Shown piece after piece: positions 3,301-33,643 of a stretch of 64,000 bases of DNA. Numbering within the stretch: the first letter of the stretch is position 1; each line of letters begins with the position of its first letter. The notes below the pieces were generated by a model, which was not told the DNA's origin, did not search any database, and worked only from the letters and a program-made list of their open reading frames with translations. The stretch is from an uncultured Planctomycetales bacterium (GTDB taxonomy: Bacteria; Planctomycetota; UBA1135): the NCBI GenBank assembly GCA_964584805.1, contig CAZPAY010000002.1:80311-144310 (forward strand). The letters are read 5' to 3'. The position numbers and the translations under genes were made by a program.

Positions 3301-4424
3301 TCGCCGAATATTTTTTCAGGCACCACGACAGCTGTCGGCTCGCCATCGGTGACGCCTTCGAGCACGGCGGTTAATGGCTCACCGGCCTCGAATGATTTTT
3401 TGCGAATCAAACCAAGGCCAATCGGCACATCGCGCACGGGCGACCAAACCCAACTTGTCACGATGCCCATTTCGTCACCGGCATCGTTGAGCAATTTTGC
3501 ACCACGCAGCGGGCGGACGCCGTCTTTAAAAGTTAGATGGCAAATGCGACGAGGCGCCTCACCGTAAGTGTTGATTCGCGCGACCACTTCTTGGCCGGTG
3601 TAACAACCCTTTGTCATGGAAACGCGCTGCCACTCGCCGGCTTCAGGCAAAGTCGTGCTGCCGTCAAAATCCATACCCCACAGCGGTCGGCCGGCTTCAA
3701 CGCGGAGCATGTCGAGCACCGCCAAGCCACTCGGGATGGCACCCTTAGTGTCGTGCAATCGCTCTGCAATCAGGCGAATGACCGTTGGCGCCCCTTGAAT
3801 TTCATAAGTTTCAACCCCGCGGTCAGGCCGGCGCAGAATCAACAAACCGCGGTCATCGCGCGCGATGCCAAAACCACCACGAGGAAGTTTGTCAAATGGA
3901 GCCTTGCCGGGCTTCACTTCGATAGCTCGGACGGGGAACTTTTCATCAAGTAGTGCTGCGCGAGCACGCTTACCAGTGAGTAAGAGTCGGGCAGGCTTGT
4001 AGGCGCTCCAGGACAAATCCTCAGAGAAGTGCATTTTTTCTAAATGCGCGTAAACGGCATCTAAAGCAGCGATGGGGAGGTCTAGCGCGAACACATCGAC
4101 TGGGCCAGCTGCAAAACGATAGACGAGCAACTCGGAAATCCAGTGGCCTTTTCCATCGAGCATTGCCGACCACTGACCACAGCCCCACTCTAGTTTTTCG
4201 ATATCACTCGAAAGTAACCTCTGCAAAAAGTCAGCCGTATCGGGGCCGGTGACCTCAATCCATGCGCGGTCACCGCCATCAAAAAGGGCAATGCCATCGC
4301 GGGCCGCTTCGTACTCAGCGCCCACGCTTGGCCCACGGACGGGAAGCAACACATCGCCCTGTGGCGTAAATTCAGCACCCCACTCTTGGAAAAGTGAATG
4401 CAGCGGCGTGTCTTGACAACCCAT
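3297..4424 (-). CDS. ygfZ: Folate-binding YgfZ/GcvT-family protein
   Basis: YgfZ signature KGCYTGQEVVARINTYG near the C-terminus. The N-terminal half is aminomethyltransferase-like. The stop overlaps the gpmI stop convergently. Confidence 0.8.
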   Translation of the reverse strand: MGCQDTPLHSLFQEWGAEFTPQGDVLLPVRGPSVGAEYEAARDGIALFDGGDRAWIEVTGPDTADFLQRLLSSDIEKLEWGCGQWSAMLDGKGHWISELLVYRFAAGPVDVFALDLPIAALDAVYAHLEKMHFSEDLSWSAYKPARLLLTGKRARAALLDEKFPVRAIEVKPGKAPFDKLPRGGFGIARDDRGLLILRRPDRGVETYEIQGAPTVIRLIAERLHDTKGAIPSGLAVLDMLRVEAGRPLWGMDFDGSTTLPEAGEWQRVSMTKGCYTGQEVVARINTYGEAPRRICHLTFKDGVRPLRGAKLLNDAGDEMGIVTSWVWSPVRDVPIGLGLIRKKSFEAGEPLTAVLEGVTDGEPTAVVVPEKIFGD

Positions 4425-4462
4425 GGCCTGATTTTATCGAGTCGCGAATCGCGTTTGGTCAA

Positions 4463-5107
4463 TCATTTTTGCCCTGTTGCGACAATAAGAATTTTGTCTG
4501 ACAAAAAGGGCGCGCGGTGGACATGGATGAGATTTCGCACGGTCAACCCTGCGGCCGATATCTCGTCATGAATCTGCGACATCGATGGATTTGATGGCGG
4601 ATGATCTCGCAAACCCAATTTGTATCGGATGCGCCGACCCCAAATTCGAAAAGTGTGACGGTGCCGGAAATCAATCACTACGCCCACGCGTGAAACGCGA
4701 TTAAGCTCGCGCAGAAATTGAATCCGCAATTCCGAGTCGCGCACAAGATGAAGCATTCGAATGCAAATCGAGGCATCAAAACGATTGTCAGCGAAGGGTA
4801 GTTTGGCCATGTCTCCCGACATGAAATGCGCATTCGGAACTTTTTGTCGCGCCTCGACCAACATGGCAGGCGATAAATCCAAGCCGGTGTACTCGAAGGC
4901 TTGATGAAGCCATTCCGAAAAACGACCGGTGCCGCAGGGTGCGTCGAGCAATGTGCGCGGGTTCAATTCAGCCAGTGCCTTCCGAAGGGCGCGAGCTTTA
5001 CGCCCATCGCGCCGCGCCCCGATTTTGCCAGCCCAGCGCTTGTCGTAGGTGCGCGCAACTTCCGTTGAGCGGTAACTTTCAAGCTTGGGAGGGCGAATCT
5101 GCGGCAT
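4463..5107 (-). CDS. Class I SAM-dependent methyltransferase
   Basis: Motif I LLDAPCGTGRFSEWL, and the length (214 aa) fits a Methyltransf_11/25-like protein. Confidence 0.8.
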   Translation of the reverse strand: MPQIRPPKLESYRSTEVARTYDKRWAGKIGARRDGRKARALRKALAELNPRTLLDAPCGTGRFSEWLHQAFEYTGLDLSPAMLVEARQKVPNAHFMSGDMAKLPFADNRFDASICIRMLHLVRDSELRIQFLRELNRVSRVGVVIDFRHRHTFRIWGRRIRYKLGLRDHPPSNPSMSQIHDEISAAGLTVRNLIHVHRAPFLSDKILIVATGQK

Positions 5108-5141
5108 CGCGAGAGGATAGCGGCATTATCCTGCTATCACC

Positions 5142-6083
5142 ATGCGACCCGACCTCCCCGCTCTGCCGCCGCGCCCGACCGATGCACATAAAGGCTCCAT
5201 GGGTCGCGTCGTTTTGGTAGTTGGCTCTCGCGGGATGGCAGGCGCCGCTGTTTTGGCCGTCGAGGCGGCGATGCGTGGCGGCTCTGGTTATGCCGTCGCT
5301 TGTATTCCAGGCGCGATTGGGCCAGATATGACGGCCGCGGTTCCGTCGGCGATTCAAAGTTTGTGCGGTGATTCTTCCTGCGAATTCTTCAAAGAGGCCG
5401 ATGCTTCCGTTGTGCTCGCTGAACTTTCTAAAGCCCAATCACTCGTCATTGGCCCAGGTCTAGGCCGTGCCGCTGAAACCGGTACTTTCCTTCGTGCATT
5501 GCTGGTTGGCGTGAGCCGCGATTTTCCCGATTTGCCGGTCGTCTTCGATGCCGATGGCCTTTACCACCTCAATAATGCTTTGGGTGACGCCCTACCCCTG
5601 TGCGGCGCACGGGCGATTTCTGACGGAGCCTCTGGCTGTGAGAGCCTTTTGACTACCGGCATTCCGGTGATTACGCCTCATCCTGGCGAGGCAGCATTTT
5701 TACTCGGGGGCGGCTTTACGGTTGATCATGTGCAAGCCAATCGGGCAACAACTGTGCAGCAACTTGCCGATTCTGTGGGCGCAATCGCACTTTTAAAAGG
5801 CGCAGGCACATTGGTAGCCGCGCCGTCTCACGCCAGCTTGCCTATCTGGAAAAACGAAACAGGCAACCCTGGCATGGCTACAGCAGGCAGCGGCGATGTA
5901 CTTTCTGGTTTGATTGGCGCATTACTTGCTCGAGGGATGCTCGCTTTTGACGCAACTAAGGTTGCCGCTTATTTGCATGGACGAGCAGGTGATTTGGCGG
6001 CTGCGGCTCTCGGCCAAGATGGAATGATTGCTTCGGATTTAATTCATTATTTGCCACAAGCGTTCCAAGAGTTTGCGCCGTGA
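5142..6083 (+). CDS. nnrD: ADP/ATP-dependent NAD(P)H-hydrate dehydratase (YjeF C-terminal type)
   Basis: KGSMGRVVLVVGSRGMAGAAVLA and GNPGMATAGSGDVLSGLIGALLARG. Confidence 0.9.
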   Translation: MRPDLPALPPRPTDAHKGSMGRVVLVVGSRGMAGAAVLAVEAAMRGGSGYAVACIPGAIGPDMTAAVPSAIQSLCGDSSCEFFKEADASVVLAELSKAQSLVIGPGLGRAAETGTFLRALLVGVSRDFPDLPVVFDADGLYHLNNALGDALPLCGARAISDGASGCESLLTTGIPVITPHPGEAAFLLGGGFTVDHVQANRATTVQQLADSVGAIALLKGAGTLVAAPSHASLPIWKNETGNPGMATAGSGDVLSGLIGALLARGMLAFDATKVAAYLHGRAGDLAAAALGQDGMIASDLIHYLPQAFQEFAP

Positions 6084-15505: not shown

Positions 15506-15523
15506 CCCGCGCGAATGCGCGGG
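15506..15523 (+). other. GC hairpin in the 5' leader, 13 nt upstream of the OFOR fusion-gene start
   Basis: CCCGCGC-GAAT-GCGCGGG forms a perfect 7-bp stem. No U-tract follows it. Confidence 0.4.
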
Positions 15524-15535
15524 CAAAAGCAACCC

Positions 15536-17752
15536 ATGGAAATCCGCATTCACGGACGAGGAGGTCAAGGTGGCGTCACAGGCGCTAAGATTTTGGCTCT
15601 CATTTACGCACGTCTTGGCAAAGATGTGCAGACATTTGGCGACTACTCTGGCGAGCGCTCCGGCGCCCCCGTGCGGGCTTATACCCGTGTGAGCGACGAG
15701 CCCATCACCAACCGAAACAAGGTTTATCACCCCGACCACCTGTTGGTTTTTGATGAATCTCTGCTTGGCCCCGCGGTTTTGGCGGGCGTCCCTAAGGGTG
15801 GGCATATTTTGATCAATACGGCGATGTCGATGGGCGATTTGCCCCCTGAATACGCCGCATTCAATGTTGGGCTGATCAACGCCACCGAAATCGCGCGCAA
15901 GCATGGCATCGGCACCAAATCGCTGGTGATTGTGAATACCACGATTGCGGGTGCCTATTGCAAACTCGTCGGTCTTGAGTTTTCTGAACTTGATGCGGCT
16001 TATAACGATATGGGTTTTGCCTCTAACCTTGTTTCGGCGCGTGAAGCGTTTGACACGGTTGAGATTTGCGAGACGGCCACTCCGCATGAGCATGCACCCG
16101 AAGACGATTTGTCTGCAGCGCAACTGCCGATGGTCATGGAGTTGGTCGATCATGTCACCAGCCCTGCGACTGGCTTGAAGACCGGCACCTGGTCGAGTCA
16201 GCGCCCAGCTTATTTGCAAAAACTTGCACCCTGCTCAGCGTTTTGCCCTGCCGGCAACGACGCGATTGGTTTTGTGCAAGCCATGGCAGCCAATGGTGGT
16301 GGTGCGGCGGAAGGCTCTGCCATTTTGAGCAAGTCGACTCCGCTCTCCGCGGTTTGCGGTCGCGTTTGCCCCGCACCTTGCATGGAAGGTTGTAACCGCG
16401 CCGAAAAAGATGGCACGGTTAATATCCGCGGCCTTGAGCGCTGGATTGCTGAGCAAAACCCAGTTGCTGTGCGCAAGGTCGAGCGTTTGGCGGACGCAAA
16501 ACGCATCGGCATCATCGGCGGGGGCCCCGCTGGTTTGAGCGCGGCTTATGAGCTGGCTAAGGCTGGCCACGAGGCGCATATTTTCGACACCGAAACCCAA
16601 TTGGGCGGCGTGTTGCGCACGGGCATCCCTGAATACCGTTTGCCGCGAGTGGCCCTTGACCGTGAGGTTGATGATGTGCTCGCGCTTGGCGTGACCGCGC
16701 ATTGCGGCGAGGCGATTGATGCCGCCCGCATGACTGAGTTGGCCAGCGAATACGACAGCGTCATCATCGCGGCCGGTTTGCAAAAGCTGCGCTCACTAGG
16801 TTTGCCCGGTGAAGATTCTGACAGTGTCGAGCAGGGCATCCGCTTTTTGCACCGCATCACGATGGGTGGTGGCGCGAGTCTAAGTGGGCATGTCGTCATC
16901 TTGGGTGGCGGTAACACCGCCATGGATTGTGCGCGCTCGGCCTATCGCGCTGGCGCTGACAAAGTGACCGTCGCGTATCGCCGCACCCACGCGGAGATGC
17001 CTGCCATCCGTGAAGAGATTCATGAGGCCGAGGCGGAAAATGTCGAGATGCTGATGCTGCGCGCGCCGAAAGGTTATGTCGTTGAAGGCGGCAAGTTGAC
17101 CGGCATCGAGCTTGAGATTCAAGAGCTTGGCGAGCCAGACGACAGCGGTCGGCGCTCCCCGCAAGGTACAGGCAAAATCGAAACGCTTGACTGCAATTAT
17201 GTTTTGCTCGCGCTTGGGCAGAGTATTGACACGGGCATTTTCCCCGCGGGTTGGGAGATGGCCGACGATCATCATGTCACGACGCCAAACGGCGCGGTGG
17301 TTTTTGGTGCCGGCGACATTTCCACCTGGGAAGGCACGGTGACGCACGCGATTGGCTCCGGTCGACGCGCCGCCGGTTTGGCTTTGAATGCGCTGGGTGT
17401 GAGTTACGAAACATTCGTGCGACCCGAGCGCGTGACGGCCGTCCCTGCGACGGCGATTCGGATGGATCACTTTTCTGCACGCGATATGAGTGCCGATCAA
17501 ATGCTGCATCCGAGCCCGTTGGCGGGGGATTACAGCGAAGTTAATGCGGGCATGGTTGATGCGAGTGAGGCCGACCGATGCTTCTCTTGCGGCAATTGCA
17601 CGAATTGCGATAACTGTCTTGTGTTCTGTCCGGAAGGCATCATCGCGCGACAAACTGAATACGGTTACGCCGTTGACAATGATTACTGTAAAGGTTGTGG
17701 CATCTGCGTTGAAGAATGCCCACGCGATTCCATGGAGATGTTCCAGCTATGA
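15536..17752 (+). CDS. Fusion protein: OFOR gamma module + GltD/NfnB-like FeS-FAD-NAD(P)H oxidoreductase + 2x[4Fe-4S] delta-like ferredoxin module
   Basis: The N-terminus MEIRIHGRGGQGGVTGAKIL is PorG-like. The middle has CSAFCPAG and CGRVCPAPCMEGCNR, then IGIIGGGPAGLSAAYELAKAG and VVILGGGNTAMDCARSAYRAG...VAYRR. The C-terminus has CFSCGNCTNCDNCLVFCP and YCKGCGICVEECP. Confidence 0.85.
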   Translation: MEIRIHGRGGQGGVTGAKILALIYARLGKDVQTFGDYSGERSGAPVRAYTRVSDEPITNRNKVYHPDHLLVFDESLLGPAVLAGVPKGGHILINTAMSMGDLPPEYAAFNVGLINATEIARKHGIGTKSLVIVNTTIAGAYCKLVGLEFSELDAAYNDMGFASNLVSAREAFDTVEICETATPHEHAPEDDLSAAQLPMVMELVDHVTSPATGLKTGTWSSQRPAYLQKLAPCSAFCPAGNDAIGFVQAMAANGGGAAEGSAILSKSTPLSAVCGRVCPAPCMEGCNRAEKDGTVNIRGLERWIAEQNPVAVRKVERLADAKRIGIIGGGPAGLSAAYELAKAGHEAHIFDTETQLGGVLRTGIPEYRLPRVALDREVDDVLALGVTAHCGEAIDAARMTELASEYDSVIIAAGLQKLRSLGLPGEDSDSVEQGIRFLHRITMGGGASLSGHVVILGGGNTAMDCARSAYRAGADKVTVAYRRTHAEMPAIREEIHEAEAENVEMLMLRAPKGYVVEGGKLTGIELEIQELGEPDDSGRRSPQGTGKIETLDCNYVLLALGQSIDTGIFPAGWEMADDHHVTTPNGAVVFGAGDISTWEGTVTHAIGSGRRAAGLALNALGVSYETFVRPERVTAVPATAIRMDHFSARDMSADQMLHPSPLAGDYSEVNAGMVDASEADRCFSCGNCTNCDNCLVFCPEGIIARQTEYGYAVDNDYCKGCGICVEECPRDSMEMFQL

Positions 17753-18906
17753 GCCGTCAATTAATTAGTGCTAATCACGCCGCCGCTGAGGCTGCAACCA
17801 TGGCCGCGCGCGCCAATAAAAATGCGCGAGGTTTTGCGAGTGGGATTTACCCCATTACCCCGCAGACGGAGTGCATCGAATATCTTGCCAAGCAAGAAAT
17901 CGAAAAGGGCTCGGTGGTGCGTGTCGAGAGTGAGCACAGCGCGATGGGCGTTTGCATTGGCGCGTCGATTTCGGGCGCACGCACTTTCACCGCTTCGGCT
18001 TCAAACGGTTTGTCGTATATGGTCGAAAACATCGCGACGGCTGGTTTTTACCGCTTGCCGATTTTGATGTATGCCGTAAACCGCACGCTGGGGCCACCTT
18101 GGAATATCTGGGTGGATCACGGCGATACTTTTCAGTTGCGCGATGCCGGTTGGATGCATGTTTACTGTGAAGACAATCAAGAAGTCATGGATAGCATTTT
18201 GTTTGCTTATCGCGTGATGGAAGACAAGCGCATCATGTTGCCCATGATGGTTTGCGCCGATGCATTTGTGTTGAGCCATACGATGATGATGACCGACATG
18301 CCGACGCAAGAGCAGGTGAATGAATTCTTGCCTGACTTGGATTTGCCCCACGCGATTGGGCTTGACCCCGTCACGATTGGCGGTCTTGACTTTCCGCGTG
18401 AGACGGAAGTCCACCGCCGTCAACACCAAGAGGCGTTTGATCGCGTGCCTGAGGTTTACGCCGAAGCGCAGGCTGAGTTTGAAAAGGTGTTCGGTCGGAA
18501 AATCCCTGATCGCGTGGTGCCCTACCTGATGGATGACGCGGAAATCGCGATTGTCTGCATCGGTACTTTCGCCAGCACGGTGAAGCCGGTTGTCGATAGG
18601 CTGCGGAAACAGGGCATTAAAGCCGGTTTGGTGCGTTTGCGGATGCTGCGCCCATTCCCGGAGCAAGAGATGACAGAGCTTCTCTCGGGCGTCGAGCGCA
18701 TTGGCGTGATGGACCGCGATATCTCACTCGGCATGGGTGGTGTGCTCTGGAGCGAAACTCGTGGTTGCGCGCCTGACTCCATCATGCAGAATTACATGAT
18801 TGGCCTTGGCGGCGGTGATGTCCGCGCCGGGCATATCGAAAACATTTTCACCGAGCTTCTTGAGCAAAAAGAATCAGGCAAGCCTCGCATCGTGGAGGTC
18901 GGATAG
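17749..18906 (+). CDS. 2-oxoacid:ferredoxin oxidoreductase alpha subunit (substrate unassigned)
   Basis: GIYPITPQTECIEYL, VESEHSAMGVCIGASISGARTFTASASNGL. ATGA overlap with the upstream gene. The track start at 17716 is an extension. Confidence 0.9.
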   Translation: MSRQLISANHAAAEAATMAARANKNARGFASGIYPITPQTECIEYLAKQEIEKGSVVRVESEHSAMGVCIGASISGARTFTASASNGLSYMVENIATAGFYRLPILMYAVNRTLGPPWNIWVDHGDTFQLRDAGWMHVYCEDNQEVMDSILFAYRVMEDKRIMLPMMVCADAFVLSHTMMMTDMPTQEQVNEFLPDLDLPHAIGLDPVTIGGLDFPRETEVHRRQHQEAFDRVPEVYAEAQAEFEKVFGRKIPDRVVPYLMDDAEIAIVCIGTFASTVKPVVDRLRKQGIKAGLVRLRMLRPFPEQEMTELLSGVERIGVMDRDISLGMGGVLWSETRGCAPDSIMQNYMIGLGGGDVRAGHIENIFTELLEQKESGKPRIVEVG

Positions 18907-19821
18907 ATGACTGCAAATGAACCAGTAATGGCGGGTCTTCCGCATTCTGAGCAAGATCGCTCGGAGCCTGTATTGCGCGCCGGCAACACGAATTGTGGTG
19001 GTTGCGGGATGTCAAACGGGCATCTATTCATGTCACGCGCTGCGGGCACAGAATTCAAAATTCAAATGGTAATTCCGGCTTGTTGCGGCATCGTGACGCC
19101 AGGGCAATTTCCGTTTTCCAATTACGGCGCTCCGGTTTTGGCTTCGACCTTTGGTGGAGCAGCTGCTTTTGCTTGTGGTCTCGCCGAAGTGGCCGCGCAA
19201 AACGACGACGGCACGCGCGTCGTGGTTTGGGCCGGCGATGGCGGCACCTATGACATTGGTTTCGCGACCATGTCGGCTGCGGCTGAGCGTAATGATGACA
19301 TTATGTATGTCTGTTACGACAATGAAATTTACGGCAACACGGGTGGTCAGCGGTCGTCCGCGACACCTGAGGGTGCGTCTACGACGACGACGGCAAAAGG
19401 AAAAGATGTCGGCAAAAAAGACATCATGGGCATTTTGGGTGCGCATGGTATTCCTTATGCTACGACAATTTCATTGGCCCACCCGGAAGATGCTATCCGT
19501 AAATTTAAGAAGGCTTTGGGTATGAAGGGTTTCCGATTCGTTCATATTCTTGCGCCATGCCCAACCGGCTGGAAATCTGAGCCCGGCGAGGGCATTGAGA
19601 TTGTGCGTTTGGGGATTAAGTCGGGGCTCTTCCCGATTTTCGAGATTGAAGATGGTTGGAAATACACCATCAATGTTGAGCCCGAAATGTGCGACGAGGC
19701 GCTGCAACAGTACCTCGACATGCAGGGTCGATTCCGCAAGGCCGGCGTGAGTGCTGAAAATATGCGGCCTGCAATTGACCGTTACTGGCGCCGACTTCGG
19801 ATGCTAGCCCGCGACGAATAA
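18907..19821 (+). CDS. 2-oxoacid:ferredoxin oxidoreductase beta (TPP-binding) subunit
   Basis: NCGGCGM, WAGDGGTYDIGFATMSAAAERNDDIMYVCYDNEIYGNTGGQRSSATP. Confidence 0.9.
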   Translation: MTANEPVMAGLPHSEQDRSEPVLRAGNTNCGGCGMSNGHLFMSRAAGTEFKIQMVIPACCGIVTPGQFPFSNYGAPVLASTFGGAAAFACGLAEVAAQNDDGTRVVVWAGDGGTYDIGFATMSAAAERNDDIMYVCYDNEIYGNTGGQRSSATPEGASTTTTAKGKDVGKKDIMGILGAHGIPYATTISLAHPEDAIRKFKKALGMKGFRFVHILAPCPTGWKSEPGEGIEIVRLGIKSGLFPIFEIEDGWKYTINVEPEMCDEALQQYLDMQGRFRKAGVSAENMRPAIDRYWRRLRMLARDE

Positions 19822-20092: not shown

Positions 20093-21406
20093 TTAGGCGT
20101 TGCTGTCAAGCGGCGCCGGTAAACGCATCGTTACCCAAATCGGAATCAGCAAAATGGCAGCACTTGCGTAATAGGGCGCTTGTGAACCCAATTGCCAATA
20201 CAGCACAGCGCCCAAAAGTGGGCCGAAAGCGCGAGCGAGTGAGCCCATTGAGCGGAATGTACCCATGGCAAGACCTTGGTTTTCGACGGGCGCGTATCGC
20301 GAAACAAGTGCCGAGAGGCAGGGCATCGCAAGTGCTGAGCCGACGGCCAAGAAAGCGAGGCCTGCATAAAGTGCGCCCGATGTCTGCGCCGATGCAATCA
20401 CCGCAAGGCCAGGCACAATCGTTGCTAACCCGATGGTTGCGATTTTGCGCTCACCATATTTCGGAGCTAGTCGACGCACAAAACCGCCTTGCACAATCGC
20501 GATGATGAGGCCGACAAAAACGAAAATGCCGGTTAATTCTCTTGGGGTGTAATCAAGCCTTTCCGCTGCTAGGAAAGTGAGAGAGAATTCCGCTGCGGCA
20601 AACGCGGTTAGAAAAGTGAGATACAAAAGGTTGGTCGCCAATATGCCTGGAGCATCAAGTGTGCGCAAACGGGCAAAAGGGTTGAGGCTGCGTTGGTTTG
20701 CGCCAAGGCCGCGTTTTTCAGGGGGCAGTGTCTCTGGGAATTTAAGTGCAACCCAAATGATGTTGAGAATGCCCAGGCCAAGTGAAGCTATCGCTGGAAT
20801 GGAAAAGGGGTTTAACGCAAAAACCGAATTCGGAGCAACTCCGCTTTCGATGCCCGGCAAAAGAAAGAAACTGCTGAGCCCGCCAATTGCGGGGCCAAGG
20901 ATAAAGCCTAGACCGATGGCCATCCCGACCATGCCCATGCCTTTGGCGCGATCTTGAGGTGTGGTTGTGTCGGCAACCGCAGCCGATGCAGTTGAAATAT
21001 TCCCGGCCATCGCACCACCCAAAATGCGTGCGGCAATCAAAATCGAAAACGAGCCAGCAAACACCCAAAGCACATACGACAAGACCGTCCCGGCCAAGGT
21101 CATGAGCAAAACGGGGCGTCGGCCAATGCGGTCGCTCATTCCGCCCCAGAGGGTCGAAAAGACAAACTGCAAAATGCCATAAAGTGAACCCAAAATCCCG
21201 CCGAACAACGCGTGAACGGCCATGGAATCACCCGCGGCCATTTCTCTAAGCCATGCGGTCAATTGCCCGAGACCCGAAGCCGTGCCTTCCACAGCCAAAT
21301 AATGATCAAGCAGCGCTGGGAATAGCGGAAATAAAACGGAAAAACCCACGATGTCTAAGAACACCGTGAGGAAGACGACTCCTAACACGCGGGGAGGGTT
21401 TTTCAT
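20093..21406 (-). CDS. MFS transporter (drug:H+ antiporter/tetracycline-efflux-like)
   Basis: 12-TM pattern, GGMSDRIGRRPVLL MFS motif A. I moved the start to ATG 21406 (MKNPPRVLGVVFLTVFLD). Confidence 0.85.
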   Translation of the reverse strand: MKNPPRVLGVVFLTVFLDIVGFSVLFPLFPALLDHYLAVEGTASGLGQLTAWLREMAAGDSMAVHALFGGILGSLYGILQFVFSTLWGGMSDRIGRRPVLLMTLAGTVLSYVLWVFAGSFSILIAARILGGAMAGNISTASAAVADTTTPQDRAKGMGMVGMAIGLGFILGPAIGGLSSFFLLPGIESGVAPNSVFALNPFSIPAIASLGLGILNIIWVALKFPETLPPEKRGLGANQRSLNPFARLRTLDAPGILATNLLYLTFLTAFAAAEFSLTFLAAERLDYTPRELTGIFVFVGLIIAIVQGGFVRRLAPKYGERKIATIGLATIVPGLAVIASAQTSGALYAGLAFLAVGSALAMPCLSALVSRYAPVENQGLAMGTFRSMGSLARAFGPLLGAVLYWQLGSQAPYYASAAILLIPIWVTMRLPAPLDSNA

Positions 21407-21531
21407 TGGCGTTAGTTTAGTGGCGTGAAAAGTAAAGAGTATGTTCCAAAGGTATTTGTCATCTAACCGCTTTAGGTGGGAGGGGGTCTGCCCTATTAGG
21501 ATGTGCATTCGCCGGCGTCGGGCCCCCCGAT

Positions 21532-22170
21532 GTGGCGAAATTGGAAATGACAAGTCTTCCTGAAAAAGCTTTGAGCGCAGGTGTTGCACGCGTGCGTGAT
21601 CTTGATGTCCGGCCTACTTTGGCGCAGGGTATCGACCCGTTTACGAAAATCATGGCTGCTGCGGCTGAGCTTGACGCCGATGAGGCCTTACGCCTCATTG
21701 TGGGTTTTAAGCCAAAGCCGCTTTACCTTGTGATGCGTTCGCGTGGTTTCACAAGCAATACCGAGCAAAATGCCGACGGTGATTTTGAAGTTTTGTTTTG
21801 GAAGAAGCCTGGTGGGGGCGGTGGGTTATTCGGCAAATTGCTTGGCCGTCGTAAAGCTAAGGAAGGCGCGACAGTCGCACCGCCGTCGGCCGAGGCACGC
21901 GAGGCGATTGCTGCACGGGCGGCCGAAATGCAGCCCCCCGAATTTTTGGATGTGCGCGGCCTTGAGCCACCTGAGCCAATGATGCAGATTTTGGCCAAGC
22001 TCGATGAAATGGGGCCAACAAGTCAGCTGATGATTGATCACCACCGCGAGCCACTTTTGCTTTATGACAAGTTGAAAGAAAAAGGCTTTGCATCATCGGC
22101 AGAAGAAATCGAAGCGGGGCATTGGAAAATCCATGTCTTTCCCGCAAGTACAAAAGAGGAATCATCATGA
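21532..22170 (+). CDS. Tandem DUF2249 (TusA-fold-like) domain protein
   Basis: There are two repeats: LDVRPTLAQGIDPFTKIMAAAAELDADEALRLIVGFKPKPLY and LDVRGLEPPEPMMQILAKLDEMGPTSQLMIDHHREPLLLY. An alternative ATG is at 21547. Confidence 0.7.
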   Translation: MAKLEMTSLPEKALSAGVARVRDLDVRPTLAQGIDPFTKIMAAAAELDADEALRLIVGFKPKPLYLVMRSRGFTSNTEQNADGDFEVLFWKKPGGGGGLFGKLLGRRKAKEGATVAPPSAEAREAIAARAAEMQPPEFLDVRGLEPPEPMMQILAKLDEMGPTSQLMIDHHREPLLLYDKLKEKGFASSAEEIEAGHWKIHVFPASTKEESS

Positions 22171-23471
22171 GTAACACAGGTCTAGCCACGCAATTCGCCC
22201 CTCCCTACAAGTTGGTGAATACCCACTTTATCTTTGGCATTCTCGGCTTTGTGGTCGCGGCGTTGTTTCTGAATTACTTCTCGCCTGAATTGAGCGGGCA
22301 TTATTTGACACCGAAGTTTATTGGGCTGACGCACGCCTTCGTTTTCTTCTGGTTCTTGCCAGTTGTCTTCGGTGCGTTGCTGCAGATGTTGCCCGTTTTA
22401 TTTGAGGTGCCCGTGCGCGGTGTCAAGACGGCAGGCTTCGCGTTTGTGCTTTTGGCGATTGGTGGACCAGGTGTTTATTCGCATTTGGTAAATATGAATA
22501 CATCGGTTGGTCTTATTGCCACATCATCATTTGTTACGGTCTCTATTTTGCTTTATTGCGTGGTGTTTTTCACCACTCTCCGGCAGGCGAAAAAGATAGA
22601 TTTGACGGGGTGGCATGTCATTGCGGCACTTTCCTGTTTGGCCTTCGCCGCCATCGCAGGGCTTGTTTTAGCGTTTCATTTGCATAAACCGTTTCTGCCT
22701 TATGCGCATACGATGTTCTTGCGCGGTCATGCGCATTTGGCGGCATTTGGGTTCTTCGCATTCCTCGTTATGGGCGTTGCTTATAAGCTGACGGAAATGT
22801 TTTTGCTTGCTTACGGAGCACCGAAAACGGCAGGAAAAATATCACTCGCGTGCGGCACTTCGGGCCTGTCACTTTTGACCTTTGGGTTTTTCTGGGCAGA
22901 GCCAATGATGGGTATAACCTGGGCGGGCGACCTTGGCACAATCCTGTCGGGCTTGAGTGTGATTCTATTTGCCGTGCAAATACGCATCATTTTGAGCAAA
23001 CGCATGAAGCGCAAACTTGACGCTCCATGGCAACACACGATTGCAGCCGTCGTCTGGCTTTTGGTGGCTTTTGCACTTGCTGCAACGATGCGCTTGGGCG
23101 GGCACTCACCAGATGTCGAGCACGGTCTTGGCATTGCTTACGGCATCATTGGCCTCCTTGGTTTTGTCGGCTCCGTCATCATTGGACAGCTTTACAAAAT
23201 CGTGCCATTTTTGGTTTGGTTGCATAAATTCAGCCATCTTCTCGGCGGCGAGCGTCCTGTCAAGCCAGCTACTGAATTAATCAATAAAAAGGCCATGGAC
23301 CTTCTCTGGATGCCCTGGCATCTCGGTTTGATGTGTCTCGTTATCGGCGTGATGAGTGGCCAAGAAAATGCCGTCCGCGCGGGTAGTCTTTTGGTGTTGG
23401 CGGTTGCCGTTGGTCTCGCCTTCACTTTGTTTGGCGTTTATCGCGCCAAGCCTTACCAAGACGAATCATGA
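22167..23471 (+). CDS. 12-TM integral membrane protein with His motifs reminiscent of heme-copper oxidase subunit I (tentative)
   Basis: About 12 hydrophobic helices. THAFVFFWFLPVVFG and RGHAHLAAFGFF resemble the HCO helix motifs (HAFVMIFFMVMP / HPEVYILILPGFG, and HFH). ATGA overlap with the upstream gene. Confidence 0.6.
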   Translation: MSNTGLATQFAPPYKLVNTHFIFGILGFVVAALFLNYFSPELSGHYLTPKFIGLTHAFVFFWFLPVVFGALLQMLPVLFEVPVRGVKTAGFAFVLLAIGGPGVYSHLVNMNTSVGLIATSSFVTVSILLYCVVFFTTLRQAKKIDLTGWHVIAALSCLAFAAIAGLVLAFHLHKPFLPYAHTMFLRGHAHLAAFGFFAFLVMGVAYKLTEMFLLAYGAPKTAGKISLACGTSGLSLLTFGFFWAEPMMGITWAGDLGTILSGLSVILFAVQIRIILSKRMKRKLDAPWQHTIAAVVWLLVAFALAATMRLGGHSPDVEHGLGIAYGIIGLLGFVGSVIIGQLYKIVPFLVWLHKFSHLLGGERPVKPATELINKKAMDLLWMPWHLGLMCLVIGVMSGQENAVRAGSLLVLAVAVGLAFTLFGVYRAKPYQDES

Positions 23472-23836
23472 TTTCTCTCGACAAGCTTTCCCCGGACGAG
23501 CAGCGTTTGCTCGGGTCTCTCGAAACCGTTTTCGACCCAGAGACGGGTATTGGCGTTGTGGATATGGGCTTGATTTATGGCATCGCTCTCGATGCCGCAT
23601 CGGGTGGTTGCAAAGTCACGATGACTCTCACGACCCCTGCTTGCCCCATGGCCGACGCTCTGACCGATGGCGTCAAGCGGCGTTTGATTGCTCAAGATGG
23701 TGTCGATTCCGTTGAGGTCGACTTGACCTTTGAGCCAATGTGGTCTCCCGAAATGGTTTCCGAATCGGCCCGCACCAAGATGGGGATGGGCGGCGGCAAG
23801 CCGTCCGCTAAAGCTGACAAAGGGTTCTCGGTTTGA
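23468..23836 (+). CDS. DUF59 / MIP18-SufT-like metal-sulfur cluster assembly factor
   Basis: VFDPETGIGVVDMGLIYGI...MTLTTPACPMADAL...VEVDLTFEPMWSPEM. Confidence 0.85.
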   Translation: MISLDKLSPDEQRLLGSLETVFDPETGIGVVDMGLIYGIALDAASGGCKVTMTLTTPACPMADALTDGVKRRLIAQDGVDSVEVDLTFEPMWSPEMVSESARTKMGMGGGKPSAKADKGFSV

Positions 23837-24213
23837 GTTTTTCTGGCCTGTTGATGTTGGCGGCCGCCGGCGCGGCAGGCACTTTGGCGCGTTATGGCTT
23901 GAGCGCGCTGATGACAAGGCTGTTTGGTGCGGTATTCCCTTATGGCACGATGAGCGCCAATATGTTGGGCTGCTTGATTTTCGGCCTGGTGTGGGCGTTG
24001 GTGCGTGAGCGCGAATTACTGTCCGCCGAGACGGGCCTCGTTTTGATGGTCGGTTTTTTGGGTGCGTTTACGACATTTAGCGCATTTGCCAACGAGGGCG
24101 CCATGTTTCTTAAAAATGACCAGTGGGGGATGATGCTCGGTTATGTTTTATTAAGCAACATTTTGGGCATCGCCTGCGTATTTGGCGGCTCGTGGTTGGC
24201 TCGCTGGATTTAG
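23833..24213 (+). CDS. crcB: Fluoride ion channel CrcB/FluC
   Basis: GAAGTLARYGLS, FPYGTMSANMLGCLIFG and GFLGAFTTFSAF. The TTG start overlaps the upstream stop. Confidence 0.88.
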   Translation: MSFSGLLMLAAAGAAGTLARYGLSALMTRLFGAVFPYGTMSANMLGCLIFGLVWALVRERELLSAETGLVLMVGFLGAFTTFSAFANEGAMFLKNDQWGMMLGYVLLSNILGIACVFGGSWLARWI

Positions 24214-24231: not shown

Positions 24232-24756
24232 TTATCCACGCAGAGGCTTCAAGCCCGATTTTTTTCGCCGCGTGTTGAGACCGTGCAACGCGCGCGGCTC
24301 TAGGGCTAAGAGTTTGACGAGCTGGCTCACGCTGACTTCAAAAGCCGTGGCTGTCTGTGAAATGTCGTCTTCGTCGAGGCGCAAGCGGTCGAGGACTTCA
24401 GCAAGGATGCCTGGGAAATCGGCGTGGGTTGGGTTGACCTTGATGCGCCCCTTGCGCAAGCGCGACCGCCATGGCTCGCTGGGCTGAAATTCGCCAGCTG
24501 AGACAAAGGCGGAATCGGCTAATGGAGTGCGGAATTCCAGGGCCAGATTGACCCTCAATCGGAAATACGCCACTTTTAAATTCTCATGCTGCGAACGCCG
24601 CTCGTTGGCCTGGGCCACCACGCCAGATGGCTCGTGGCAGAGTCGAATCGCTGTTTGGACGCGATTGCGGTGCTGGCCACCCGGCCCCGATGCGCGGGTG
24701 CGTTCGACTTTGGTTTCGCGCTCAAGTTGCTCGGCGGGCAGGGCGGCTGGATGCAT
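24232..24756 (-). CDS. GGQ-domain peptidyl-tRNA hydrolase (ArfB / release-factor-like family)
   Basis: RASGPGGQHRNRVQTAIRL. At 174 aa it has a longer C-terminal part than I expect for ArfB. Confidence 0.75.
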   Translation of the reverse strand: MHPAALPAEQLERETKVERTRASGPGGQHRNRVQTAIRLCHEPSGVVAQANERRSQHENLKVAYFRLRVNLALEFRTPLADSAFVSAGEFQPSEPWRSRLRKGRIKVNPTHADFPGILAEVLDRLRLDEDDISQTATAFEVSVSQLVKLLALEPRALHGLNTRRKKSGLKPLRG

Positions 24757-32392: not shown

Positions 32393-32490
32393 GCGGCTAG
32401 TTTAAAGGCTTTTCGAGTCAAGGAAGTGCGGAAACAGCGCACGCAAACGGCCTCTTTTGGGCCAGCGCTCTTTCCGCTCAAACTCTCTCG

Positions 32491-33333
32491 GTGAACAACC
32501 TCAAAGAGGGGCAGACGGTTTTCGTTCAAATAAATGGTGTTGCCATTTTTCGATCTCGTGTCCCGATGGGGCTAGCGGGCGTGTCGGTTTGGTTTCAGGC
32601 GATGGAAACGAATTACGATGGATTGAGCAATTCTGTTGCCGCGGTGACGCTAGATACTTTTCGCATGGACACTTTCGAGACAACGATTGATTTGTTCTGC
32701 TCGTATCTCAATGAAGCAATGGCCGCGGGCGACATTTGAGTGACCGGTCGCGTTGTCTATCAGGTCGGTGGCGCTGGCGAAGCGATTTGCGATACATCGA
32801 ACCATTCGGCCGATAGTTTTATTTACTGGAGCGGCAATCGTTTCAGCGTGGAAGACGATAAGGAGTTTTACTCGATGACCGAAGTCAGTTGGTATGGCGC
32901 GTGTCTCTTTGCAAATTGGCGCAGCACTCAAGTGGGCCGGACGCCCTGCTACGACCCAACCACTTTTGACTGTAATTTTCTTGCGGATGGCTGGCGTTTG
33001 CCGACGGAAGCCGAGTGGGAATACGCTGCCCGTGGCGGCGAGCACAACCCCTATTACCAATACCCATGGGGAAGCAACACCATCACCACGGTCGATGCGA
33101 ATTACGACAATACTTGGGGTGGCGCGTATGAAGTCGGGTTTTATTACGCACCCAATGGATATGGCCTCTACAACATGGCGGGGGATGTGGGTGAGTTTTG
33201 CTACGACTGGTACGACGAGGATTATTACTCCACCAGCCCTGTTGTGAACCCAGTTTGTCTTGTGCCAAACGGTCTCTTCAACGATGAGCGGAACTATGGT
33301 GTGGGTTTTCGTCTTGTTGCAAATTGGCGATGA
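32491..33333 (+). pseudogene. FGE-sulfatase (SUMF1-like) domain gene interrupted by an in-frame TGA at 32737-32739 and lacking the RGGSW segment
   Basis: ORFs 32491-32739 and 32740-33333 are contiguous in one frame. WRLPTEAEWEYAARGG, GLYNMAGDVGEF and the C-terminal GFRLV are present. There is no signal peptide. Confidence 0.6.
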
Positions 33334-33350
33334 GTAATGTTTTCATCATC

Positions 33351-33643
33351 ATGCGCAAGTTGCTTTACGCGAGTCTTCTTTTCACGCTCGCAATGCCTCT
33401 GTGTGCACAAACGCTTTCCGTTTCAAATTTAACAGAGGGCATGGCGACGACTGGTATGACGGCAATTACTTCAGCTCAACCCCAAGCCATAACCCGGTTG
33501 GTCCAAGTAGCGGTCAATACCGCAGCGTGCGTGGTGGAAGTTGGGCTTCTCCCAGCACGGCTTTGCGCTCGGCGGATCGCCACAACCTAAGCCCAGATTA
33601 TCAACACCGCCATTTTGGCTTCCGGCTAGTTTCGAAACACTAG
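33351..33643 (+). pseudogene. Remnant of a second FGE-domain gene: a signal peptide joined out of frame to the C-terminal ~65 codons
   Basis: Frame 0 encodes MRKLLYASLLFTLAMPLCAQ. From about 33440, frame 2 encodes GDDWYDGNYFSSTPSHNPVGPSSGQYRSVRGGSWASPSTALRSADRH...FGFRLV. Confidence 0.6.

Follow-up and report, generated by a model that had tools for sequence, protein, structure and literature searches.

A co-conserved DUF2249, haem-copper oxidase homologue and DUF59 gene trio in a planctomycete operon as a putative accessory unit in nitric oxide stress or denitrification

Three-unit membrane proteins known as 'HCO homology' (HCOH) proteins, after the haem-copper oxidases (HCO), were reportedly described from computation by Pei et al. 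in 2014, with DUF2249 neighbours and in a denitrification context. The DUF2249 family is presumably the same as COG4309. In a prediction of 2005, COG4309 was placed in NnrR/NsrR regulons and in co-transcription with nor genes, and Rodionov et al. proposed that it is relevant to the function of nitric oxide (NO) reductase (PMC1274295). In Haloferax mediterranei four DUF2249 genes are induced under denitrifying conditions, and the same report credits Pei et al. 2014 with the link between DUF2249 and the HCO superfamily (PMC11218638). The DUF2249 proteins DrpA and DrpB of Thermus are needed for normal nitrate respiration, DrpB being membrane-associated without a transmembrane (TM) segment (PMC6282519), and NnrS is induced by NO and aids NO resistance in an hmpA deletion (PMC3345576). 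Here we analyse a 64,000-nucleotide stretch of DNA from an uncultured Planctomycetales bacterium (assembly GCA_964584805.1, contig CAZPAY010000002.1, positions 80,311 to 144,310 of the forward strand; hereafter the window), in which an operon of four genes, A to D, occupies positions 21532-24213 and encodes a tandem DUF2249 protein, a 12-TM membrane protein, a DUF59 protein and a CrcB fluoride channel. We find that genes A to C constitute a co-conserved trio built around a homologue of HCO subunit I that lacks most of the catalytic ligands, and that the most likely role of this trio is an accessory one in NO stress or denitrification.

The four genes are co-directional open reading frames (ORFs) on the plus strand and overlap by four bases at every junction, with ATGA at 22167 between A and B, ATGA at 23468 between B and C, and TTGA at 23833 between C and D. 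These coordinates reproduce those of the original prediction, a note made from the letters of this DNA, and its assignment of the products as tandem DUF2249, 12-TM, DUF59 and CrcB proteins agrees with Pfam, NCBIfam and an AlphaFold2 (AF2) model. Overlaps of four bases are the usual signature of a tight operon and present no statistical anomaly. The genes are as follows.

21548-22170, plus strand: gene A, two DUF2249 domains (PF10006), cytoplasmic; alternative GTG start at 21532.
22167-23471, plus strand: gene B, 434-amino-acid, 12-TM homologue of HCO subunit I (weak PF00115 match, AF2 model, Foldseek).
23468-23836, plus strand: gene C, DUF59 (FeS_assembly_P, SufT/PaaD-like; PF01883), cytoplasmic.
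23833-24213, plus strand: gene D, monomer of a CrcB/Fluc fluoride channel (PF02537, TIGR00494).

Gene B is related to the catalytic subunits of the haem-copper oxidases in fold, repeat structure and topology. Its Pfam match to PF00115 (COX1), joining residues 36-252 to profile positions 192-408, scored 31.8 bits and did not reach the gathering threshold of 34.8; Pfam gave no match to PF05940 (NnrS) at E<=0.01, and the gene B family has no model of its own in Pfam-A or NCBIfam. An AF2 model built with a 34-sequence alignment has a pLDDT of 92.6, a pTM of 0.92 and 12 long helices, and when compared with the PDB by Foldseek it matched only catalytic subunits of the HCO superfamily, best of all cbb3 CcoN (TMq 0.73-0.75, E about 5e-8) and then NorB, bo3, aa3, ba3 and qNOR. 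With hhalign, gene B also aligned colinearly to NnrS over 338 columns (P 95.8%). The sub-threshold PF00115 match, the Foldseek matches and the NnrS alignment together establish the kinship with the two families that had been named for comparison in the original prediction. The protein consists of three homologous four-helix units, residues 1-142, 143-283 and 284-434, which align with one another in hhalign (P about 97%, E 4e-12 to 6e-11). Because the loops carry 13 lysines and arginines on one side of the membrane versus 1 on the other, both termini are placed in the cytoplasm, which is the topology of subunit I. The family is large, comprising 1854 clusters of 50% identity at E<=1e-30, or 3657 when the limit is relaxed to E<=1e-10, and its range takes in Planctomycetota, Myxococcota, Ignavibacteria/Bacteroidota, Methylomirabilota, Nitrospirota, Verrucomicrobiota and Campylobacterota, with members in Thiobacillus, Sulfuricella and Brucella as well; RefSeq labels a member from a cultured organism 'hypothetical protein'. 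P0070, an 862-amino-acid representative from the library clustered at 50% identity, has no Pfam match and was matched twice along its length by the family profile; it may have arisen by tandem duplication or by the fusion of two HCO-like proteins.

Residue conservation, measured in 84 homologues from independent loci and in an earlier set of 34 sequences, singled out three sites in gene B.

22332-22334, plus strand: codon of His56, in TM2 near the outer face; invariant (34/34 and 80/80), predicted axial haem ligand.
22728-22736, plus strand: codons of His188-Ala-His190, in TM6 near the outer face; H188 in 82/82, predicted second axial haem ligand.
23196-23219, plus strand: codons of K344-I-V-P-F-L-V-W351, at the cytoplasmic end of TM10; invariant motif.

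H56 and H188 each lie 7-8 residues from the outer end of their helix. In the third site all of 84 sequences have K344, P347, F348 and W351, and the motif is a candidate docking surface for soluble partners. The paired histidine motifs pointed out in the original prediction thus survive in part, in that H56 and H188 are invariant, whereas H190 is found in 45 of the 84 homologues, always together with Y325, and there is no conservation of the H171-L-H173 pair. Gene B lacks four of the six ligands that are canonical for oxidases and NO reductases, those of CuB/FeB included, and TM7 has no histidines and thus no His-His pair.

The register of the two invariant histidines points to an unusual place for the haem. 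In a profile alignment, H56 corresponds to the second histidine of the CcoN H-x-H (HVH) motif and to H207, and H188 to CcoN H60. Taken together, the CcoN alignments and the repeat register mark out two places for a ligand on every unit's second helix: in the HCOs the TM2 histidine takes the 'first' position, the CuB histidine of TM6 takes the 'second', and TM10 carries both in its H-x-H motif. Every HCO metal site is made of the second-position histidine of unit n and the first-position histidine of unit n+1. By this register, H56 would occupy the second position of unit 1 and H188 the first position of unit 2, and for that reason they most likely sandwich a single b-type bis-His haem near the outer face at the interface of units 1 and 2, an interface that is cofactor-free in the characterised HCOs. 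The same register puts H190 at the position of the TM6 CuB/FeB histidine and Y325 at that of the high-spin haem ligand, so that something of the catalytic site may survive in the H190/Y325 subtype, of which the window protein is a member.

The partnership of genes A, B and C recurs far beyond this operon. We counted neighbours with hidden Markov models trimmed to the columns of the window proteins used as seeds, at 73 loci with room on both sides of the membrane-protein gene. A DUF2249 gene directly upstream and a DUF59 gene directly downstream, on the same strand, were present at 53 of the 73 loci, with DUF2249 only at 14, DUF59 only at 1 and neither at 5, so that a DUF2249 gene directly precedes the membrane-protein gene at 67. 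The loci come from Planctomycetota, Myxococcota, Ignavibacteria, Methylomirabilota, Verrucomicrobiota and Campylobacterota and in Thiobacillus and Brucella. The conservation of the whole quartet, which the original prediction had proposed to check, is borne out for genes A to C by these 53 loci but not for CrcB, which is confined to the window and a 92%-identical relative. Two DUF2249 domains per membrane protein are a common arrangement at the family loci, whether in one tandem protein or from two separate genes. Fusions join the partners covalently: DUF59 is fused to the C-terminus of the membrane protein in P0033, P0053, P0107, P0133, P0148 and P0163, and DUF2249 to its N-terminus in P0203. 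Since the two domains are fused at the two termini and both termini are cytoplasmic, DUF2249 and DUF59 are placed on the cytoplasmic face.

The trio also falls into subtypes. Among loci with H190, 36 of 38 have DUF59 downstream, versus 12 of 29 of the H190-less loci (Fisher p 3e-6, uncorrected for phylogeny), and a hemerythrin gene lies upstream at 10 of 29 H190-less loci versus 0 of 38 with H190; in the sample examined, hemerythrin and DUF59 behave as alternative partners. On the Aliarcobacter butzleri plasmid NZ_CP104333.1 (L089, 6664-8537) the trio occurs by itself, with a Tn3 transposase/resolvase on one side and an IS21 element on the other, and this stand-alone occurrence between transposable elements argues that the trio is a self-sufficient unit. 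The plasmid comes from a poultry-meat isolate, and RefSeq labels the first two genes of its trio hypothetical proteins.

Gene A was matched twice by PF10006 in Pfam (103.9 bits versus a gathering cut-off of 29.5, E 3.9e-30); its domains have a TusA-like fold, with a weak TusA match besides DUF2249, and are joined by a glycine-rich linker. DUF2249 had no significant match among PDB sequences. An 83%-identical orthologue in the relative L007 begins MNLPEKAV and aligns there with MTSLPEKAL of the window, and because of this alignment ATG 21548 is more likely to be the start of gene A than GTG 21532. Gene C was matched by PF01883 in Pfam with 61.1 bits (gathering score 23.5, E 1.2e-16) and in NCBIfam stays under the equivalog cut-offs of SufT (TIGR02945/TIGR03406) and PaaD, at 94.5 versus 143.4, 89.8 versus 202.6 and 78.7 versus 180; no suf or paa genes were seen near it in the window. 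Its nearest relatives in the PDB are TTHB138 (2cu6) and TM0487, and it carries the motif T-x-T-T-P-x-C-P, the cysteine of which is kept in 67 of 68 sequences.

Neighbouring ORFs of the 84 loci were clustered without preselection and the cluster representatives assigned by Pfam, with the following families as neighbours.

CRP/FNR regulator: 28 of 84 loci.
4-TM single-unit HCO homologue: 25 of 84 loci.
Cupin: 13 of 84 loci.
Hemerythrin: 9 of 84 loci.
NirK-cytochrome c: 7 of 84 loci.
Rrf2: 7 of 84 loci.
NosZ: 6 of 84 loci.
qNOR: 6 of 84 loci.

NosD/F/Y, NorC, NorE, SCO1, FGE-sulfatase and DUF6448 were found besides these. Typical gene orders are CRP-NirK-FGE-SCO1-DUF2249-DUF2249-HCOH-DUF59-4TM-Fer4-DUF6448-cupin-qNOR and NosZ...NosD-NosF-DUF2249-HCOH-DUF59-4TM-DoxX-NosY, and in Thiobacillus and Campylobacterota Hr-DUF2249-HCOH; at single loci a ScdA_N-hemerythrin (YtfE-type) gene adjoins the trio (L001) or NnrS directly follows it (L002). 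Perfect FNR/Dnr-type boxes, TTGATCTGTATCAA, lie 41-55 nucleotides upstream of DUF2249 in L059 and L070, both of Verrucomicrobiota, and near-perfect ones in L046, L043, L052 and L058; a box score of at least 9/10 was reached at 5 of 70 loci, mostly of Verrucomicrobiota, which suggests control of the module by CRP/FNR regulators in that phylum. The membrane metallo-system with a small-anion or NO-related function that the original prediction envisaged finds its NO side reflected in the NO and denitrification context of genes A to C; since the quartet as such is not conserved, no small-anion role follows from it. The 4-TM protein that comes after DUF59 at 25 loci (L017-L042, for example L034 4669-5124) is of about 150 amino acids, has an H-T-H motif and weak COX1, DUF2871 and NnrS matches, and looks like a single-unit oxidase homologue; the window is without one.

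We propose that genes A to C encode an NnrS-like, one-haem complex of an oxidase homologue, belonging to the accessory repertoire of NO metabolism and denitrification, in which the haem handles NO while the partners protect or rebuild iron and iron-sulphur (Fe-S) centres; we see this proposal as evenly poised between right and wrong, and are less certain of its mechanistic steps than of the explanation as a whole. The products of genes A to C would form one physical complex. The haem of the membrane subunit would be a site, in the membrane or the periplasm, at which NO (or a related nitrogen oxide) is bound or turned over, and the cytoplasmic face of this subunit would carry the tandem DUF2249 protein and the DUF59 protein with its reactive, SufT-like cysteine. 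These cytoplasmic partners would then couple the handling of NO to the protection or rebuilding of iron and Fe-S centres.

Several points weigh against this proposal. The haem and its location are predictions, the geometry of H56 and H188 being derived entirely from the register. A haem near the outer face and partners in the cytoplasm would leave a gap too far for direct electron transfer, which makes the coupling step speculative. In the 64-kb window no nir, nor, nos, hmp, hemerythrin, CRP/FNR or Rrf2 gene was recognised by phmmer with representatives of the neighbour families, a search of limited sensitivity, and there is no FNR/Dnr-type box before the operon, where the box search of 70 loci scored at background level; because such genes and such a box are missing here, the NO link for the window organism amounts to guilt by association from other phyla. 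Finally, the neighbourhood statistics are phylogenetically non-independent, with about 25 of the loci being from Ignavibacteria.

A bolder form of the proposal takes the trio as a self-sufficient, horizontally mobile membrane machine, whose haem would sit in the pore that is empty in HCOs, whose H190 and Y325 would be a catalytic remnant and which, with DUF2249 and DUF59 (or hemerythrin), would detoxify NO or rebuild iron centres damaged by it. We hold this to be possible but doubtful. Quite another function would be signal transduction, with the haem protein sensing NO, nitrate, nitrite or redox state, a DrpB-like DUF2249 protein relaying the signal to a CRP/FNR regulator of the Dnr/NnrR type, and DUF59 as an accessory. 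A single haem without a catalytic metal site fits a sensor, loss of DrpA/DrpB in Thermus deregulates the nar and dnr promoters, DrpB being membrane-bound without a TM segment (PMC6282519), and a gene for a CRP/FNR regulator adjoins the module at 28 of the 84 loci. That regulator, however, may merely control the operon, and there is none near the window operon or the plasmid-borne trio; an output domain is likewise absent, and a sensing function leaves without a role both the DUF59 protein with its conserved cysteine and the hemerythrin that replaces it in the sampled H190-less subtype. We therefore consider sensing unlikely.

If instead the trio were a maturation factor, it would insert or repair the FeB, haem, copper or Fe-S centres of NorB, NirK, NosZ and similar enzymes. 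This would suit DUF59 as a domain of Fe-S assembly type, the proposal by Rodionov et al. of a relevance of COG4309 to NO reductase (PMC1274295), and the Ignavibacteria, in which the trio lies inside nos clusters between nosF and nosY and also in nirK-FGE-SCO1-...-qNOR clusters. In the window, however, no gene for such an enzyme was recognised by the phmmer search of limited sensitivity, the trio also occurs isolated as transposon cargo on a plasmid, and its soluble partners lie in the cytoplasm, while the maturation of NirK and NosZ takes place in the periplasm, all of which makes a maturation role quite improbable in our view. Gene B could also be a divergent catalytic subunit of a terminal oxidase or NO reductase in its own right, as the subunit I fold, the CcoN and NorB proteins at the top of the structural matches and the weak PF00115 match would have it. 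Against this, it has counterparts for only two of the six canonical histidines, neither a TM7 His-His pair nor a second invariant pair of haem ligands, no subunit II or NorC encoded alongside it in the operon and a Pfam score under the gathering threshold. On this ligand test we rejected a catalytic oxidase or NO reductase identity despite the fold, and regard it as scarcely credible.

Gene D raised the question of whether the operon works as a whole. It is a canonical CrcB by PF02537 (85.7 bits) and TIGR00494 (82.4, cut-off 80.45), has canonical length, and when aligned to Fluc-Bpe (5a40) keeps the pore motifs G-T-x-x-A-N and G-F-L-G-x-x-T-T-F-S-x-F. Its TTG start is supported, since upstream of the next ATG the window and the relative differ at four nucleotides, three of them synonymously. 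As the original prediction held, no fluoride riboswitch is present, none being found by Rfam between 21000 and 24600 even at E<=10, and no Rfam family reached its gathering score anywhere in the window. Its statement that fluoride channels normally stand behind such a riboswitch was over-generalised; the crcB gene of Escherichia coli, for example, is not known to have one. All four genes might be imagined as one system, a membrane metalloprotein with a role in fluoride or small anions, given the four-nucleotide overlaps and the preservation of the quartet in the 92%-identical relative, a metagenome-assembled genome (L007/L009). However, among 84 non-redundant loci CrcB follows DUF59 in the window and this relative only and is missing at all others examined, the synteny between the two stops directly after crcB, and CrcB is a canonical, self-sufficient Fluc. 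A four-gene functional unit was rejected on conservation, and we think it very improbable. Gene D is best read as an ordinary fluoride channel added to the 3' end of the operon in this planctomycete lineage, with which it shares the transcript alone; CrcB is outside the conserved module and to be annotated independently.

The surroundings of the operon in the window are as follows.

Start codon at 21406, minus strand: MFS transporter gene, divergent from the operon.
21407-21547, no strand: intergenic region separating the divergent MFS gene and gene A, which presumably holds the operon promoter, a role suggested by position alone.

A sigma-70 scan of 21407-21547 found no promoter, and in scans of the window for promoters and terminators sites were no commoner than in shuffled sequence. 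The base composition of the operon gives no sign of recent transfer. In the relative L007 a gene of the FGE-sulfatase family, of 428 amino acids (3950-5236), stands between the MFS gene and DUF2249; it is missing at 21424-21925 of the window, where its sole counterpart is a 34%-identical paralogue about 10 kb downstream (about 32452-33637). FGE-sulfatase (NirV-like) genes likewise precede SCO1-DUF2249 in the nirK clusters of Ignavibacteria. Convergent to crcB is an RF-1-domain gene (24232-24756, minus strand, 174 amino acids), PrfH/ArfB-like with the GGQ domain alone matched; the relative carries an Mrr_cat gene in its place, and there is no synteny there. The farther flanks are housekeeping genes, for 2-oxoacid:ferredoxin oxidoreductase, acyl-CoA synthetase, short-chain dehydrogenase (SDR), acyltransferase and BtpA. 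At 15515-19821 a fusion of 745 amino acids, POR-gamma/Fer4_20/pyridine-nucleotide-disulphide oxidoreductase/Fer4, is followed by POR_N/PFOR_II and TPP_enzyme_C genes; this set, syntenic in L007, resembles a 2-oxoacid:ferredoxin oxidoreductase into which an NAD(P)H-flavin module has been built.

The operon does not represent a new type of pathway, and the quartet owed its unusual look to an incidental association with CrcB. A link of DUF2249 to nor genes has been known since 2005, and three-unit HCOH proteins with DUF2249 neighbours in a denitrification context were, reportedly, described computationally in 2014. The original prediction could assign no known pathway; a claim that no known family fits is too strong, for gene B matches the three-unit HCOH proteins and the DUF2249-HCO link is cited in the literature (PMC11218638). 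What may go beyond the literature is the partnership with DUF59, the fusions at both termini and the stand-alone, transposon-borne copy, and likewise the link of DUF59 to H190/Y325 and of hemerythrin to the H190-less subtype, and the register argument for a haem in the 'empty' pore. Regulons of NO stress and denitrification repeatedly include NnrS-like oxidase homologues and DUF2249 proteins, and the trio offers a target for work on their biochemical function: the data define a compact unit of three proteins with H56 and H188 as ligand candidates, with fusions that speak for a complex, with two subtypes and with a copy that stands by itself on a plasmid. If the trio were indeed a machine that detoxifies NO or rebuilds iron centres, this would give DUF2249 and NnrS-like proteins a biochemical function.

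Compared with known systems, gene D shares length, motifs and model scores with the canonical Fluc/CrcB channels and differs from them in having no fluoride riboswitch and in being the last gene of an unrelated operon. Gene C shares its domain and its conserved cysteine motif with SufT, TTHB138 and TM0487; unlike SufT and PaaD it scores below the cut-offs and lies outside a suf or paa operon, and the DUF59 of the family is paired or fused with a membrane protein. The DrpA/DrpB pair of Thermus thermophilus resembles the present DUF2249 protein in its overlapping DUF2249 genes, the tandem DUF2249 of DrpB, membrane association and the tie to nitrate respiration. DrpB, however, has an extra DUF1858, no HCO-like or DUF59 partner has been reported, and DrpA is reported to be periplasmic whereas the fusions described here put DUF2249 in the cytoplasm. 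With CcoN and NorB, gene B shares the fold, the orientation with both termini inside and histidines that sit equally deep in the membrane, on a unit's second helix; it differs in the loss of the CuB/FeB ligands, of the pair of low-spin and high-spin haems and of partner subunits, and in a haem predicted between units 1 and 2 rather than between units 3 and 1 or 2 and 3. NnrS is usually a solitary gene. It is a homologous, colinear 12-TM protein of NO-responsive regulons, and in L002 is encoded after the trio, but has been reported to bind haem and copper (PMC3345576). Gene B forms a separate family at the distance of remote homology, and where gene B has H188, the NnrS sequence used for comparison lacks a histidine. 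Gene B agrees with the three-unit HCOH proteins in the features by which these are reportedly defined: like them, it has 12 TM helices in three homologous four-helix units, most similar to TM9-12 of CcoN, and two conserved histidines for a single predicted haem, with DUF2249 genes alongside and a gene context of denitrification and NO.

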